From a virus (Duplodnaviria; Heunggongvirae; Uroviricota; Caudoviricetes): a stretch of DNA of 5,162 bases. The position numbers and the translations under genes are program-made. The notes under the pieces are model-generated. The model was not told where the DNA came from and did no database searches. It saw only the letters and a program-made list of their open reading frames with translations. Numbering within the stretch: the stretch's first letter is position 1; each line of letters opens with the position of its first letter. Positions 1 through 5,162 of the stretch are shown piece by piece. Location of the stretch: the IMG/VR virus record IMGVR_UViG_2529292977_000014, one strand, 5' to 3'.

Positions 1-234
1 ATGCGTGATGATCGTTTTAATTCCCTGAAACAGGAATTTTCCGGCGTTCCTGATGATGCGGCTGATGCGCTTTCGTCAATGCCAGAGCTTATTAGAGCGG
101 CTTTTTTCTTACTTTCCACGAGAGAATATAAATCAACGGGGCTTGATGTACTGAATATCGCCGCCGATTATGCGGAATATGTGGCAGAGGCGCGTTATAG
201 AAGAAAATTTCCTGAGGATGTAAGCCATGCGTGA
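1..234 (+). CDS. hypothetical protein (possibly 5'-partial; window starts at an in-frame ATG but the true start may lie upstream)
   Basis: Open frame 1-234 (77 aa) ending at TGA 232-234; same strand as and overlapping by 8 nt the next ORF; no recognisable motif. Confidence 0.35.
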   Translation: MRDDRFNSLKQEFSGVPDDAADALSSMPELIRAAFFLLSTREYKSTGLDVLNIAADYAEYVAEARYRRKFPEDVSHA

Positions 235-460
235 TATTTACCACCAAACAATAGACCGCGCATTTCTTGCACTTTCTCACAGTGAAAACATGATGGAAAT
301 ATTTCGCATATGGCTTGAAACACTTGGCGACAATGAACGCGACAAACAAAAATCAAGAATTGCCACGGCATTAATAACGCTTCTTGAGCCTGTAATAATG
401 GAACTGCAAGAAATAGATCTATTGCACGACAGATATAAAGAACAGCACACCGGAGAATAA
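227..460 (+). CDS. hypothetical small protein
   Basis: ATG at 227 preceded by GAGGA (213-217) at about 9 nt; 77 aa; overlaps the upstream ORF stop, suggesting operon coupling; no recognisable family. Confidence 0.45.
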   Translation: MRDIYHQTIDRAFLALSHSENMMEIFRIWLETLGDNERDKQKSRIATALITLLEPVIMELQEIDLLHDRYKEQHTGE

Positions 461-465
461 AAATA

Positions 466-765
466 ATGAAACTTAAATATTCTGGCTTAACTGCCAGTGG
501 CAACACTCACCCTAAATTTACGCGCGGTGATATTTACCGCGACCAGTACGGCGGCACGGTAATGATTAAGGGCGTGGAAGAACGGCGCGTAACCTACCGC
601 CGTGAAGGTTACGAATATGATTGCGTGATGCCTGTTTATCAGTTCCGGCGTGATTTTTCTCTGGTACAGACCGCGCCGCATAACGTGCCCACCAGCAACG
701 CCAGGGCACGGGCAAACATCCAGAAGCTGAAAACCATGGTTAACGGATTCAGGGGCAAGAAATGA
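466..765 (+). CDS. hypothetical protein, translationally coupled to downstream replication gene
   Basis: ATG at 466 preceded by GGAGA (450-454); 99 aa; its stop overlaps the start of the next gene as ATGA (762-765); basic, Arg/Tyr-rich; no recognisable family. Confidence 0.5.
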   Translation: MKLKYSGLTASGNTHPKFTRGDIYRDQYGGTVMIKGVEERRVTYRREGYEYDCVMPVYQFRRDFSLVQTAPHNVPTSNARARANIQKLKTMVNGFRGKK

Positions 766-2162
766 AAAGCGCACCGAACTTAAAAAAACAGCCTTACGAC
801 AAGATGACCGAAGTCATTATTTTTGCGGGTAGTGATGCCTGGGCACATGCGAAACAGTGGCAGGAACAGGACGGGCGACTGGCTGGCGATAATGTGCCTC
901 CCGTTGTGCTGGCTGATGATCAACTGGATGAACTGGCAGAACTGAGAATCATCGACGAGGGGCGCTATTGTGTCCGGCTGTACAAGGCAGGCCACATCAG
1001 GCCATCAAATATTAATGCCATTGCGCACAAGCTGGCGGCGGCGGGTGTAACTGATGCGAATTATTACCCCGAAGGGATGCACAGCCATATGCGGGAGAAC
1101 TGGCGCGAATACCTGGAACGGGTGCGCGGGAAAGAGCCGGCGGAAGAAAAAAACCACCAGCGAAAAACCACGCTACCGATGAGCGTTGGATCTACCGGAT
1201 ACGACACGCAACTGGATTACGTGGTTAAGGGGATTATTCCGGCGGTATCGCTATGCAGCATATACGGGGCTAGCGGGTCCTATAAATCATTCCTTGCCGG
1301 ATCGTGGGCGTGCCATGTTGCCACTGGTCGCCAGTGGGGAGGCCGCAGGGTTGCACATGGTGCGGTTCTCTATGTGGTTGGTGAAGGCGGTATAGGTGTT
1401 CCGCGTCGTGTAAAAGCCTGGGAGGTTGTGCACGATGAGCAGGTGAAAAATCTGTATCTGGTAAACCGCCCCATCTTTCCGGCTGCCCCGCTTGATGTTG
1501 ATGAAATGGTTATCGCTGCCCGTCAGGTGGAGCGGGAAACGGGTAAACCTGTACGCATGATTATTCTGGATACGCTGGCGCGTTGCTTTGGTGGGAATGA
1601 TGAAAATGATTCCCGTGATATGGGGGCGTTTATCCGTGGTTGTGACGAACTGAAACGACGCACAGGGGCCACGGTGCTGGTGGTTCACCATTCCGGCAAG
1701 GATGAGACGAAAGGCGCGCGCGGTTCCAGTGCATTTCGTGCTTCGCTGGATGCTGAATACCGGATACGCAGGGAGGACGCAGGAAGCGAAGCGCTGGTTA
1801 TCTCATGCACCAAAATGAAGGACGCGGAGGAACTCAAAGAAGCCGCATATGACTTACGCGTGGTGGAGCTTTTTACCGACGCTGACGGTGAATTAATCAC
1901 GTCGCTGGTGGTGGTGGATGATCCGCGCCCTCCTGTTGAACTGGAGCGCATCGAGGAGGCAGGGAACAAGACGGAAAACCATACCGCGCTATGGGGGTGC
2001 ATCCGTTCACGCACACAGAACGGCGACAAGTGCACGATCCCGCTGTTACGTGATGACATGAAAAAGCTGGGGTATGAAATGAAAAACTTCCGGCGCTGGC
2101 TGTACAAGCTGGAAAAAGATGGGGTTATTCGTATCGATGGGGATGATGTAGCGCCGCTATAA
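762..2162 (+). CDS. replication helicase/initiator, RecA-like P-loop NTPase (RepA/DnaB-like, AAA_25-type) with a putative C-terminal DNA-binding domain
   Basis: 466-aa ORF. Walker A GASGSYKS at aa 169-176 (nt 1266-1289); Walker B-like hydrophobic run ending in Asp, MIILD, at aa 266-270; LVVHHSGKDETKGARGSSAF motif at aa 306-325, typical of RepA-like helicases; basic C-terminal region (aa ~400-466) resembles a winged-helix origin-binding domain; iteron array begins at its stop codon. Confidence 0.75.
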   Translation: MKSAPNLKKQPYDKMTEVIIFAGSDAWAHAKQWQEQDGRLAGDNVPPVVLADDQLDELAELRIIDEGRYCVRLYKAGHIRPSNINAIAHKLAAAGVTDANYYPEGMHSHMRENWREYLERVRGKEPAEEKNHQRKTTLPMSVGSTGYDTQLDYVVKGIIPAVSLCSIYGASGSYKSFLAGSWACHVATGRQWGGRRVAHGAVLYVVGEGGIGVPRRVKAWEVVHDEQVKNLYLVNRPIFPAAPLDVDEMVIAARQVERETGKPVRMIILDTLARCFGGNDENDSRDMGAFIRGCDELKRRTGATVLVVHHSGKDETKGARGSSAFRASLDAEYRIRREDAGSEALVISCTKMKDAEELKEAAYDLRVVELFTDADGELITSLVVVDDPRPPVELERIEEAGNKTENHTALWGCIRSRTQNGDKCTIPLLRDDMKKLGYEMKNFRRWLYKLEKDGVIRIDGDDVAPL

Positions 2163-2353
2163 AAGTGAGGAGCAAAAGCGAGGGGGATAGAAAGAGGGCC
2201 AAAATTAGCCCGCTCTCCCTCACTTTTCGACCTGTATACATCCTCAAAAGTGAGGGGTAAAAAAATACTTATGAAACACACACATAGAAAAACCGAAAAT
2301 CCCAACTGCGACGAAGTGAGACGCTTGAAAAAGTGAGGCGAAAAAGTGAGAGG
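2161..2353. repeat. iteron-like repeat array; candidate origin of replication
   Basis: Exact AAAAGTGAGG at 2161-2170, 2246-2255 and 2329-2338; exact inverted copy CCTCACTTTT at 2218-2227; degenerate copies at 2174-2183 (AAAAGCGAGG), 2342-2351 (AAAAGTGAGA) and 2312-2321 (CGAAGTGAGA); A+T-rich tract 2256-2300 between copies; located immediately 3' of the helicase gene. Confidence 0.6.
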
Positions 2354-2362
2354 TTGCGAGAA

Positions 2363-2614
2363 ATGACCCAAAAACGCAGAGACAGAACAGAGCCAAAATA
2401 TAAAGCGTTAGACATGACTGAGCACACCTTAAAGGTGGCAATCAGAACGATAGACCGCCACACGCGGGAAGGATACGCGAAGGAACATCCCGACCTGATA
2501 AGCGCATTCATGACCACGGCGGCGGCAAACTTTGCCACGCTGACAGAACGGGAGATTGCCGAAGCGGAACAGGTAACAACCATCAACGTTAAAACCGGAG
2601 AGGTGGAATTATGA
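2363..2614 (+). CDS. hypothetical small protein, coupled to ssb
   Basis: ATG at 2363 preceded by GAGAGG (2348-2353); 83 aa; stop overlaps the ssb start as ATGA (2611-2614). The six-frame track extends this frame to 2333 (GTG), but the ATG with an RBS is preferred. Confidence 0.5.
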   Translation: MTQKRRDRTEPKYKALDMTEHTLKVAIRTIDRHTREGYAKEHPDLISAFMTTAAANFATLTEREIAEAEQVTTINVKTGEVEL

Positions 2615-3021
2615 CGGCACAGATAGCCGCTTACGGGCGGCTGGTGGACGACCCGCAGGTAAAACAGACCAGCAAGGGCACACCGATGACGCTGGCGCGT
2701 ATGGCGGTATCTTTGCCATGCAGCCAGGCACAGGACGGACAGGCGACGTTATGGTTATCGGTCATCGCATTTGGCAAACAGGCCGGCTTCCTGGCTAAAC
2801 ATCAAAAAGGCGATGTTGCCAGCGTATCCGGCACGATGCAGGTAAGCCAGTGGACCGGACAGAACGGAGAAACGCGGCAGGGCTGGCAGGTTATCGCAGA
2901 CAGCGTAATCAGTGCCCGCGCGGCACGTCCAGGCGGGAACAGACGCAAAACCACAGGCACACAGGGTAATCAGCCACCAGCGGGAGGCGATGACCCTTAC
3001 GGTGATGATATTTCGTTCTGA
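2611..3021 (+). CDS. ssb: single-stranded DNA-binding protein (SSB), short form
   Basis: 136 aa. The N-terminal OB-fold pattern parallels E. coli SSB (GRLVDDPQV vs GNLGQDPEV; LWLSVIAFGKQA vs WHRVVLFGKLA; SQWTGQNGETR vs RKWTDQSGQDR); Gly/Pro/Gln-rich linker; acidic C-terminal tip DDPYGDDISF resembling the SSB DDDIPF tail; RBS GGAGAGGTGG at 2596-2605. Confidence 0.8.
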   Translation: MTAQIAAYGRLVDDPQVKQTSKGTPMTLARMAVSLPCSQAQDGQATLWLSVIAFGKQAGFLAKHQKGDVASVSGTMQVSQWTGQNGETRQGWQVIADSVISARAARPGGNRRKTTGTQGNQPPAGGDDPYGDDISF

Positions 3022-3031
3022 GGGGGTGACG

Positions 3032-3304
3032 ATGGTACATGACCGCATAGCGGAGGAACTGGAGGCGAAAGGCTTTTACCGGAGGGCGGCGGCGCGATGG
3101 GGTGAAGTCATGCAGCTGGTGGAGACAGACAAGGAACGGCATCACATCACGATGCGACGGCTGGAATGTTCAAGGAAGGCACAGAGGGCACCGGAGCCGC
3201 CGGATAATTTCGGAGACCTGAAAAAGGCAGTCGATCGCACTTATGCCGAAATGGGTATAGATGGTGCTGGTGATGAAATATGGCGCAATTACCAGGACAG
3301 CTAA
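3032..3304 (+). CDS. PerC-family-like transcriptional regulator (Pch/PerC homologue), tentative
   Basis: 90 aa; ATG at 3032 preceded by GGGGGTGA; N-terminal motif EELEAKGFYRRAAARWGEVM matches my recollection of the conserved PerC/Pch motif (LE-KG-WRRAA-RW); size typical of the family; followed by an intrinsic terminator. Confidence 0.55.
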   Translation: MVHDRIAEELEAKGFYRRAAARWGEVMQLVETDKERHHITMRRLECSRKAQRAPEPPDNFGDLKKAVDRTYAEMGIDGAGDEIWRNYQDS

Positions 3305-3310
3305 TCAAAC

Positions 3311-3334
3311 AGCCGGAGAAATCCGGCTTTTTTT
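3311..3334 (+). terminator. rho-independent terminator (T1)
   Basis: Stem AGCCGGA (3311-3317) / TCCGGCT (3322-3328) with loop GAAA, followed by a T-run to 3334; 7 nt after the stop of the PerC-like gene. Confidence 0.7.
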
Positions 3335-3430
3335 GCACCAGTTGAAACGGTATGGCGCATTACCGGGTTTTCGTCACGGTCAGGCATAGTTACTATCTGA
3401 AACAAACAGACACAACAGAGGAAAAAAACA

Positions 3431-3655
3431 ATGCCGATGAAATTTGATGAGATATTAAAACAGCGTGATAAATACCATGCTGACAACATGGAGACGATGA
3501 GCATCAATGATTACCGCGCATTCCTGGAGACGGGCGCACTGATTGAAAAGGATCAGCATGGTTTTGTGAGATGTGCTCTATCCGGTGAAATGCTGGCGGT
3601 AAATCCTGAACAGATAGATGCATTGATAGAATTTCTGAAAGAGATCAGAGACTGA
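3431..3655 (+). CDS. hypothetical small protein (orphan, terminator-bracketed cargo gene)
   Basis: ATG at 3431 preceded by AGAGGA (about 3416-3422); 74 aa; acidic; own upstream intergenic region (3337-3430) and bracketed by terminators T1 and T2/T3; no recognisable family. Confidence 0.5.
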   Translation: MPMKFDEILKQRDKYHADNMETMSINDYRAFLETGALIEKDQHGFVRCALSGEMLAVNPEQIDALIEFLKEIRD

Positions 3656-3674
3656 GCCAGCACACAGCACACAT

Positions 3675-3697
3675 AGCCGGAGCAATCCGGCTTTTTT
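3675..3697 (+). terminator. rho-independent terminator (T2), near-duplicate of T1
   Basis: Stem AGCCGGA (3675-3681) / TCCGGCT (3686-3692) with loop GCAA, T-run 3692-3697; 26 of 29 nt identical to the T1 region. Confidence 0.7.
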
Positions 3698-3703
3698 GCG
3701 CCC

Positions 3704-3745
3704 AAAAAAAGCCCGATAAGGTCAGAGGGTTCTTATCGGGCTTTT
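3704..3745. terminator. second, possibly bidirectional, intrinsic terminator (T3)
   Basis: A-tract 3704-3710, perfect 10-bp stem GCCCGATAAG (3711-3720) / CTTATCGGGC (3732-3741), 11-nt loop, T-run 3742-3745. Confidence 0.6.
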
Positions 3746-3821
3746 GCATATGAGGTTTTTGGATGCACTGGCGTTCGTGATCGGGATAATCATTTCATAA
3801 TTTGCAACATAACTCAATATC

Positions 3822-3872
3822 ATTGCATAAAATGCAATTCTGATTATAATCAGGACTGGATAAACATCCAGT
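3822..3872 (+). promoter_or_regulatory. candidate repressor- or activator-controlled promoter with three palindromic operators upstream of the capsid operon
   Basis: Consensus -10 TATAAT at 3845-3850 inside a perfect 14-bp palindrome CTGATTATAATCAG (3840-3853); weak -35 TTGCAT (3823-3828, 16-bp spacer) inside palindrome ATTGCA-N5-TGCAAT (3822-3838); third palindrome ACTGGAT-N4-ATCCAGT (3855-3872) near the predicted start site; AT-rich intergenic region following two terminators. Confidence 0.45.
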
Positions 3873-3906
3873 TATGATTTTTTTAGTCGAAGAGGAATTT
3901 CTTACT

Positions 3907-4113
3907 ATGGCTGAAGAGAAAAAAAGCGGTGTTTCGGTGTACATAAGCCCCGAAATCGTGGAGGTGCTCAAGCAGCGCCACAAAAAAAACTATGAAGCTG
4001 GCGTTGCGGCTGGACTGGATCCGCTGATGACGCCGGAGCCGTCGATAGGTTCACTTGTACGCTCTTATTTACTTGCGGCGCTTGGGATGCATAAAAATTA
4101 TGGGGGTGAATAA
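3907..4113 (+). CDS. hypothetical small protein preceding the capsid gene (possible capsid-accessory protein)
   Basis: ATG at 3907 preceded by AAGAGGA (3890-3896); 68 aa; stop TAA overlaps the capsid ATG (TAATG, 4111-4115). The track ORF begins at ATG 3874, which lacks an RBS and sits inside the operator palindrome. Confidence 0.5.
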   Translation: MAEEKKSGVSVYISPEIVEVLKQRHKKNYEAGVAAGLDPLMTPEPSIGSLVRSYLLAALGMHKNYGGE

Positions 4114-5162
4114 TGGCAGGCAAAGCAACGGCACTTAACACTAACCAGCTTTTCATGTACCTGAATCGCGGGGATATTGCGGATTTTAAATTCAGCCCTC
4201 TGTTTACCACGCTGTTTTTCCCGAACGTGGCGACATTCAGCACGCAAAACATCATGCTGGATACCCTGGACATTGAAGAAGTCACCATGTCGGCGTTTTG
4301 TTCGCCTATGGTGGGTAGCCAGGTTCAGCGCGATAAAGGGTACGAAACCAGCACAATCAAACCTGGCTACATGAAGCCAAAGCACGAAATCGATCCAACG
4401 AAAACCATCATGCGCATGGCTGGAGAAGATCCGGCACAGCTTAACGACCCTACCTATCGCCGTATGCGCCTGATTACTGGCAACATGCGCCGCCAGATAA
4501 ACGCCATTAAGGCACGCGTGGAATGGCTGGCGGTGAATGCGGTAACGACCGGAAAAAACATCATTGAGGGCGAAGGCATAGAACGCTATGAAATCGACTG
4601 GAAAATACCGGAAAACTGCATCATAGAGCAGGCCAAGGGTAAAAAATGGTCCGAGCAGGATAAAGACATGCACGACCCAATCTATGACATCGAGCTTTAT
4701 GCTGATCAGGCTGGTTGCCCCGCAAACGTCATGATTATGGGCGCTGAGGTATGGCGCACATTACGCAGCTTTAAAAAATTCCGTGAGCTGTACGATCTTT
4801 CCCGTGGTTCAGAATCCGCCGCCGAACTGGCCTGTAAAAACCTGGGCGAAGTGGTGAGCTTTAAAGGCTATCTTGGTGATCTGGCCCTTATCGTCTATTC
4901 CGGCAAATACACTGACAGCGATGGTACCGAAAAATATTTCCTTGAGCCTGATTTGCTGGTCCTGGGTAACACCAACAATAAAGGGCTGGTGGCCTATGGT
5001 GCGATAATGGATCAGGAAGCGGTAAGAACGGGCGCTGCGGCACTGGGGATGGCGGATATCTCTGATGTGATGATTGCTCAGGGCCTGCTGTTGCCTGCGA
5101 TTGTGGTGCTGGGGCTAAATATCTGGACCACCAACGATAACGCGCTCTATGCGTCGGGTTTA
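4113..5162 (+). CDS. major capsid protein, lambda gpE-like (Phage_cap_E family), 3'-partial
   Basis: Open frame from ATG 4113 to the window end (350 codons, no stop), RBS GGGGGTG at 4102-4108. Strong motif-by-motif correspondence with lambda gpE as recalled: FKFSPLFTTLFF vs FKFDPLFLRLFF; KPGYMKPKHEIDP vs TPGYVKPKHEVNP; DPTYRRMRLITGNMR vs DPAYRRRRIIMQNMR; KWSEQDKDMHDP vs EWSKRDKSTYDP; SFKGYLGDLALIVYSGKY vs SYKGMYGDVAIVVYSGQY; VLGNT in both. Confidence 0.85.
   Translation, partial: MAGKATALNTNQLFMYLNRGDIADFKFSPLFTTLFFPNVATFSTQNIMLDTLDIEEVTMSAFCSPMVGSQVQRDKGYETSTIKPGYMKPKHEIDPTKTIMRMAGEDPAQLNDPTYRRMRLITGNMRRQINAIKARVEWLAVNAVTTGKNIIEGEGIERYEIDWKIPENCIIEQAKGKKWSEQDKDMHDPIYDIELYADQAGCPANVMIMGAEVWRTLRSFKKFRELYDLSRGSESAAELACKNLGEVVSFKGYLGDLALIVYSGKYTDSDGTEKYFLEPDLLVLGNTNNKGLVAYGAIMDQEAVRTGAAALGMADISDVMIAQGLLLPAIVVLGLNIWTTNDNALYASGL

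Follow-up and report, generated by a model that had tools for sequence, protein, structure and literature searches.

[quoted passage not shown]

Among described phage satellites, the nearest to the locus considered here is the PICI EcCICFT073 of E. coli CFT073, for which, rather than for the corresponding island of O157, helper-phage-induced excision, replication and high-frequency transfer have been shown (PMC6092414). The O157 island, O-island 51 (OI-51; CP-933C/Sp7), was equated with the EcCICFT073-type Gram-negative PICIs by Fillol-Salom et al. (PMC6092414). In another account it figures as a "highly degraded" cryptic prophage of 14.93 kb with a known phenotype that is regulatory, its PerC homologue being named PchE and a 99-aa regulator RgdR (PMC3378721). 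Single-stranded DNA-binding proteins (SSBs), together with primases, were classed by Mageeney et al. as PICI "Replication" genes co-localised with the origin (PMC10111431), and the SSB of OI-51 had already been noted in 2012. The gene is thus a known one: it is annotated, it is in print within OI-51, and it counts among the recognised replication genes of PICIs. What is new here concerns its C-terminal tip. The allele of O157, O26 and O145 islands is a natural occurrence of the ssb113-type serine, of single origin, on a tail that is otherwise host-like.

The second system of reference is the E. coli chromosomal SSB and its mutant SSB113 (P176S). Binding of SSB113 to ssDNA is normal, its defects concerning ExoI, RecQ, PriA, Topo III, RecG, Pol V and chi, a subunit of Pol III; replication is temperature-sensitive, cells are hypersensitive to DNA damage, and the apparent Km of ExoI is four-fold higher on SSB113-coated ssDNA (PMC3159472, PMC3045619). 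YbcN, an Orf-family protein of the Rac prophage, also loses SSB113 binding (PMC4118853).

The island and its replication module

The window, that is, the whole stretch of 5,162 nucleotides that was analysed, is 100% identical over positions 1-5035 to E. coli O157:H7 chromosomes, and the element that hosts it is OI-51, an EcCICFT073-type PICI or phage satellite. In TW14359 the island spans ~11 kb between roxA (ycfD) and phoQ, with all genes on one strand and the integrase at one end. The integrase is followed by an AlpA-like HTH regulator, Icd-like genes, small ORFs, the DUF4222 gene, a RepA-family helicase and orf83; next come the SSB (annotated "single-stranded DNA-binding protein", WP_000126695.1), a PerC-family regulator, further small ORFs and a lambda-E-type major capsid protein, and the island ends with a head decoration protein, a hypothetical protein and a small terminase (terS, Nu1-type). 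The annotated region fits the EcCICFT073 type of PICI, with its terminal integrase, alpA-type regulator, rightward-only genes and length of about 10-15 kb. The ssb gene lies within this integrase-bounded island, so that the preliminary description was right to call it element-encoded. Synteny comparison places EcCICFT073 at the same roxA-phoQ site with the same gene order, and there too ssb follows rep and the origin, with orf83 on one side of it and perC on the other. The two islands differ in the replicase next to it, a D5_N/DUF5906 primase in EcCICFT073 and a RepA/AAA_25 helicase in OI-51. Identity with the capsid-forming PICI EcCIEDL933 was considered and rejected, the latter being another element, 15.4 kb long, whose head genes are of the HK97 type, whereas the late genes of the present island are a lambda-E-type capsid, a decoration protein and a Nu1-type terS. 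We also dropped the "icd-like pseudogene" as a sign of decay, because both the mobile EcCICFT073 and O26 have a similar partial coding sequence in their annotation.

The features of the window around ssb are the following.

466-765, + strand: RgdR (ECs1581-type regulator), 99 aa, Pfam DUF4222, with RGD at aa 20-22
762-2162, + strand: island replicase, a RepA-family helicase of 466 aa (Pfam AAA_25, 2.4e-43; PHROG 2850)
2162-2350, no strand: putative replication origin, holding the iteron AAAGTGAG five times, four direct and one inverted, directly 3' of rep
2363-2614, + strand: orf83, 83 aa (PHROG 1231), its stop codon overlapping the ssb start (ATGA, 2611-2614)
2611-3021, + strand: ssb (WP_000126695.1), 136 aa, ATG to TGA, an SSB by profile, fold and alignment
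3032-3304, + strand: PchE, PerC-family regulator (Pfam PerC, 3.9e-43), directly 3' of ssb
3311-3334, + strand: terminator-like hairpin with T-run, closing the orf83-ssb-pchE stretch

RgdR, encoded upstream in the rightward operon of ssb, fits its published description in both length and RGD position (PMC3378721). The replicase, named "helicase RepA family protein" in RefSeq, also matches primase/helicase families. As to the putative origin, the five iterons compare with 0.13 expected, and none of 200 shuffled sequences reached five; in PICIs, origins have been located 3' of rep (PMC6092414). The overlap of stop and start codons suggests translational coupling of orf83 and ssb, and an ORF of 83-104 aa is found directly 5' of ssb in most of the related islands examined. 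A Shine-Dalgarno sequence, GGAGAGG, is read at 2597-2603, 7 nt 5' of the ssb ATG, and no promoter-like site was found between rep and ssb.

Fold, linker and affinities of the island SSB

The ORF at 2611-3021 is intact on the + strand, and its product, which ends in GGDDPYGDDISF, has three parts.

2611-2919, + strand: OB domain, aa 1-103
2920-2988, + strand: basic disordered linker, aa 104-126
2989-3018, + strand: acidic tail DDPYGDDISF, aa 127-136

By profile, the protein belongs to the bacterial SSB family, passing PF00436 (58.2 bits against a cutoff of 26, aa 5-99) and, narrowly, TIGR00621 (54.4 bits against 53.95); it also matches PHROG 44, "single strand DNA binding protein" (4.5e-39), and 25 SSB chains in the PDB (phmmer). 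The AlphaFold2 model has a beta1-3/alpha/beta4-5 OB fold over aa 1-103 at pLDDT 85-93, followed by a disordered segment (aa 104-136). Every one of the 50 best Foldseek matches in the PDB is a bacterial SSB, with probability 1.0, E-values down to 6e-9 and TM scores of up to 0.77 when normalised to the target. By sequence and predicted fold, the island SSB has the build of a canonical bacterial-type SSB: the OB fold comes first, then the disordered linker, then an acidic tail with Phe at its end. These lines (PF00436, TIGR00621, PHROG 44, AlphaFold2 and Foldseek) agree with the preliminary description of a 136-aa SSB with an OB fold; the fold on whose presence in a structure prediction that assignment had been staked is there, and the translation does end in DDPYGDDISF. 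Its "short Gly/Pro/Gln linker", on the other hand, was well named only in part. The linker, AARPGGNRRKTTGTQGNQPPAGG, is indeed short, at 23 aa against ~55 in the host, but its composition (G6 A3 R3 P3 T3 N2 Q2 K1) is also distinctly basic, with a net charge of +4, so that the label of a Gly/Pro/Gln linker is only partly apt.

What the island protein shares with the E. coli chromosomal SSB is the OB fold, the disorder of the linker and an acidic tail whose last three residues read Ile-X-Phe. Identity across the OB domain is only 26% (alignment; host sequence verified against PDB 1eqq). Island residues W48, F54 and W81, invariant in the island SSB family, align with the ssDNA-stacking W54, F60 and W88 of the host. 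The position of the fourth stacking aromatic of the host, W40, is occupied in the family by an invariant Pro36-Cys37, Cys37 being the residue aligned with W40, and the tetramer-interface His55 is replaced by an invariant Leu49. The host linker is Gly/Gln/Pro-rich and nearly uncharged, unlike the basic one of the island. The host tip is PMDFDDDIPF (checked against PDB 1eqq/4mz9), which supports the earlier statement that DDISF differs from the host DDDIPF. Counting back from the terminal Phe, the two tips differ by Asp to Gly at -5 and Pro to Ser at -1, and the island also has Tyr at -6 where the host has Phe. Set against the consensus D-D-D-[IL]-P-F, the island tip G-D-D-I-S-F departs at two positions and the G-D-D-I-P-F of its family at one.

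The island SSB does not fall within the host-type class (PRK09010, 26.7 bits against a cutoff of 260), nor within the F-plasmid type (PRK13732, 22.4 bits against 265). Like the island protein, the F-type Ssb of conjugative plasmids is an accessory SSB that travels on a mobile element and has an acidic, host-like tip, but the island protein lies outside that family. Plasmid relatives amount to 39 records among 72,556 (tblastn), mostly small, 33 of them non-mobilizable and 2 conjugative. Phage SSBs share with the island protein the PHROG 44 match and an acidic, Phe-ended C-terminal tail for partner binding, T7 gp2.5 being a functional analogue with such a tail; yet among 50,697 phage records no close relative was found, the best reaching 35% identity. 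A plasmid or phage origin was accordingly rejected, given the distance of the best phage match, the few plasmid matches and the failure at PRK13732. Within E. coli, relatives occur in 1159 of 5426 complete genomes, with up to 6 copies per genome, and the exact island protein is present on at least 1000 contigs. Overall, the family appears specific to enterobacterial PICI-type islands.

The tip residue and the spread of the serine allele

Two codons distinguish the O157 allele.

2785-2787, + strand: codon 59, GGC (Gly), in the O157 allele only; Asp or Glu in the other alleles examined, and aligned with host Glu65
3013-3015, + strand: codon 135, TCG (Ser); CCG (Pro) in EcCICFT073 and almost all relatives, the equivalent of ssb113 (P176S)

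The EcCICFT073 SSB (WP_000126698.1), also of 136 aa, is identical to the island SSB at 132 of 136 residues; the four changes are I52M, G59D, W92Y and S135P, and its tail ends in DDIPF. Between the two genes, 22 codon differences are synonymous and 4 non-synonymous. Nei-Gojobori dN/dS lies at 0.05-0.25 in most allele pairs, rising to 0.44 in pairs that include the mosaic allele P0023, and from these comparisons the ssb family is judged to be under purifying selection. Since the EcCICFT073 protein, only four residues apart, ends in DDIPF, we conclude from the alignment that the ISF tip reflects a single C>T transition that turned CCG into TCG at nucleotide 3013 of the window. In O26:H11 the tail likewise ends in ISF, and this allele differs from that of O157 only at G59D; because it combines ISF with Asp59, Gly59 is an additional change specific to O157.

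Across the close family the host-like IPF is the norm. A terminal Phe is present in 113 of the 120 best cluster representatives, and the residue before it is Pro in 108 of these and Ser in 5. The capsid-forming-PICI alleles P0004, P0069 and P0078 likewise end in IPF. Thus, DDISF cannot be upheld as a trait of the element's SSB family: the family consensus is DDIPF, so is the tip of EcCICFT073, and ISF amounts to a single SNP. The wider short-SSB family is more permissive at this site. In 80 representatives of clusters formed at 50% identity, P stands at the penultimate position 45 times, G 9 times, S 6, A 4, N 4 and E 3 times.

The alleles carrying ISF share a common 3' block. In a comparison by 30-nt bins, the ISF alleles examined all match the window exactly from a point inside ssb (nt 181 or nt 331) through pchE, which was linked to the ISF allele in all cases examined; their 5' parts diverge, and that of the IPF allele P0004 is nearly the same as that of the ISF allele P0003. 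Because the 3' block is identical while the 5' parts diverge, the sequences indicate that P135S arose once and was moved by recombination, with breakpoints inside ssb, in linkage with the pchE block. Recurrent, independent Pro-to-Ser mutation was rejected on account of the identical 3' block in all ISF alleles. The block is found 3' of three replicases (the AAA_25 RepA helicase, DUF927 and the D5_N/DUF5906 primase), 5' of two late modules (capsid-E/decoration/Nu1 and that of an HK97-type capsid-forming PICI) and at two chromosomal sites, roxA-phoQ and tqsA. A tie between tip variant and replicase type, also considered, was discarded in view of the occurrence of ISF with all three replicases. 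This 3' region is carried by 710 complete genomes, and a 77-nt probe covering the tip is matched at 100% identity in 323 of them, a count inflated by heavy EHEC sampling; the matches include O157:H7, O26:H11, O145 and livestock isolates. Positive selection, too, would be consistent with such a spread of ISF over several types of island.

Serine at the tip: expected effects and competing explanations

The residue altered by P135S is exactly that mutated in ssb113 (P176S), and the last five residues of SSB113, DDISF, are identical to those of the island SSB. Since the two changes are equivalent, the ISF tail should bind tip partners more weakly, and an altered partner set, as previously proposed, is a reasonable expectation by this analogy. 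The size of the effect is not quantitatively transferable from the host, because the tail context differs (Gly at -5, Tyr at -6). Indeed, given that the penultimate residue is only moderately conserved in the wider short-SSB family, the effect of Pro to Ser on the island SSB could be small. The biological settings differ as well: ssb113 is a conditional-lethal mutation in the host, whereas the island Ser is a natural allele of a non-essential accessory SSB.

We consider that a satellite replication SSB carrying a tolerated P135S polymorphism is probably the best explanation of the locus. A helper phage would switch on the rightward operon of the island, and the replicase would then open the iteron origin. 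The island SSB, probably as a homotetramer, would coat the ssDNA exposed in the burst of satellite replication, supplementing a host SSB that may become limiting, and its acidic tail would dock the host SSB-interacting replication and repair proteins much as the host C-terminus does. In the P135S allele, by analogy with SSB113, ssDNA binding would be kept while tip partners would be held more weakly. The substitution is most likely near-neutral, hitch-hiking with the pchE block, rather than a new function by design.

Alternatively, P135S might have been selected to uncouple ssDNA coated by the satellite SSB from the tip-binding enzymes of the host, the possible gains being less processing by ExoI and RecQ, no titration of host partners or the avoidance of a tip-dependent immune trigger. 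The presence of the ISF block in three replicase backgrounds, two late-module types, two sites and several serotypes would suit such re-tuning, as would the loss of ExoI stimulation and of partner binding in SSB113. A further point in its favour comes from DRT10, an ExoI-controlled system whose trigger, according to a preprint, is an SSB-like phage protein bearing the tip FDDDIPF. Hitch-hiking with pchE and the downstream module, together with heavy EHEC sampling, explains the spread equally well, however; ISF occurs in only 5 of the 113 cluster representatives, the mutation is of single origin rather than recurrent, and EcCICFT073, the one experimentally mobile relative with its tip checked, ends in IPF, as do P0004, P0069 and P0078. 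Nor do two other SSB-sensing defences point to the tip. For Retron-Eco8 to be activated, the phage SSB must bind ssDNA and oligomerise; for DARNA it must bind ssDNA, the C-terminal Phe of the T7 SSB appearing dispensable. Because both systems depend on ssDNA binding and sense SSB-bound ssDNA rather than the tip, tip variation is not an obvious route of escape, and the earlier suggestion that the variant tip could serve to evade SSB-targeting defences finds no support. We thus regard selective re-tuning of the tip as quite unlikely. Its strongest form, a naturally selected, ssb113-like "partner-blind" tail poorly engaged by ExoI/SbcB, RecQ, PriA, chi or tip-dependent immune sensors, we judge more doubtful still; if true, satellite DNA would be protected or a defence left untriggered, and this would account for how the allele has spread among EHEC-associated PICIs.

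Decay offers a different account, in which OI-51 of O157:H7 is kept for RgdR and PchE while ssb drifts, P135S and D59G being mildly disabling. This would agree with the portrayal of OI-51 as a "highly degraded" cryptic prophage with a regulatory phenotype (PMC3378721), and with the two non-conservative changes of the O157 allele, G59 (D/E elsewhere) and S135 (P elsewhere), at sites that are otherwise nearly invariant. Against it, the ssb ORF is unbroken, with the identical protein on at least 1000 contigs, dN/dS in the family is low, and the ISF allele is also present in apparently complete islands of other types, including a capsid-forming PICI at tqsA. Moreover, the island keeps int, alpA, rep, the origin and packaging genes, and its icd-like "pseudogene" is shared with the mobile EcCICFT073. 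Decay therefore seems unlikely. The last alternative, prefigured in the preliminary description, is that island and host SSB co-assemble, the mixed tetramers acquiring ssb113-like tails with a dominant-negative outcome. Both are SSB-family OB-fold proteins, so that co-assembly is possible in principle, and ssb113-type tails are harmful in the host protein. Yet with an OB-domain identity of only 26%, mixed tetramers with host SSB are unlikely on sequence grounds, and the replacement of the interface His55 by an invariant Leu49 and the failure at PRK09010 (26.7 bits against 260) tell in the same direction. Mixed tetramers are reported only among closely related SSBs. We find this last explanation highly improbable.

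Read as an accessory SSB of a routine kind, from a satellite island already in print, the protein changes little. The polymorphism nevertheless provides a natural experiment, in which two satellite SSBs, identical at 132 of 136 residues, differ at the very residue that defines ssb113. The IPF side is represented by EcCICFT073, a tractable mobile PICI, and the ISF side by the islands of O157, O26 and O145. This residue pair bears on whether the tails of satellite SSBs need the host SSB-interacting proteins at all, and tip strength could bear on satellite replication, on interference with the helper and on recognition by SSB-sensing immune systems. A search of the literature for earlier discussion of PICI SSB tails returned nothing specific. 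At the peptide level, the two tips can be set side by side as a pair of tail sequences, GGDDPYGDDIPF and the ISF-type GGDDPYGDDISF.

Conserved core and exchanged modules

Comparison of modules across the ssb-flanking regions of related islands (L002, L004, L007, L008, L011, L013 and L014) revealed a conserved core made up of the DUF4222 gene plus ssb paired with perC; a short ORF usually lies immediately 5' of ssb. Around this core the replicases are interchanged (AAA_25 RepA helicase, D5_N/DUF5906 primase, DUF927), as are the late modules: some islands have lambda-E capsid/decoration/Nu1, and others the complete HK97 head module found in capsid-forming PICIs. A single replication-accessory block is thus common to PICI subfamilies. 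The features of the window discussed here are:

466-765, DUF4222 ORF, 99 aa, with RGD at residues 20-22
2162-2350, iteron AAAGTGAG, five copies (four in direct orientation, one inverted), immediately 3' of rep; 0.13 expected by chance
2363-2614, orf83, 83 aa, PHROG 1231, directly before ssb
2785-2787, SSB codon 59 (Gly59)
3311-3334, terminator-like hairpin AGCCGGAG[A/C]AATCCGGCT followed by a T-run, after pchE
3675-3698, terminator-like hairpin AGCCGGAG[A/C]AATCCGGCT followed by a T-run, after the 74-aa ORF next to pchE

In length and RGD motif the 99-aa ORF agrees with what has been published on RgdR (ECs1581), the type III secretion regulator of OI-51, and DUF4222 can accordingly be equated with the RgdR family. 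The AAAGTGAG repeats likely constitute the iteron origin of the island. For orf83, searches of Pfam and NCBIfam returned no match; an ORF of similar size occupies its position in most related islands examined. orf83 appears to be translationally coupled to ssb, and its product is a candidate SSB cofactor or replication cofactor.

SSB variation and relatives

Among the alleles compared, glycine at residue 59 is confined to the O157 SSB; the O26, CFT073, pig, chicken and 14EC001 alleles, together with the cluster representatives, carry Asp or Glu, which aligns with Glu65 of the host SSB, in an alpha-helix. The linker also varies in length within the family (alignment A1, columns 112-142), yielding forms of 136, 140/141 and 149 aa, the longer ones with an extra KGQQGQATDALNRAKQQ-type segment in the linker; their tails often read DNIPF or SDDIPF. 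In Klebsiella and Enterobacter, relatives sharing 54-71% identity with this SSB are located on "plasmid" records (H86, H95-H103) that are small (10-40 kb) and non-mobilizable; instead of true plasmids, these records may represent excised satellites or phage-plasmids. The SSB cluster represented by P0069, an allele from a capsid-forming PICI (90% identity; cluster 3), also contains members of 82-91 aa named "PerC family transcriptional regulator"; their presence has the look of an artefact of the clustering, for which gene calls that fuse or overlap across the ssb-perC junction may be responsible.

Terminator hairpins and the 3' end of the window

The two hairpins are nearly identical and look like a duplicated terminator cassette. 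The last ~127 bases of the window (5036-5162) are foreign to the island, being codB (cytosine permease) sequence at 100% identity, and the codB locus lies ~1.1 Mb from the island in O157:H7 genomes. In these genomes the island capsid gene continues for ~130 nt beyond the point where the window leaves the island. The codB tail and this continuation show the window to be a chimera or misjoin at its 3' end, so that the C-terminus its "capsid" ORF seems to have is artefactual.
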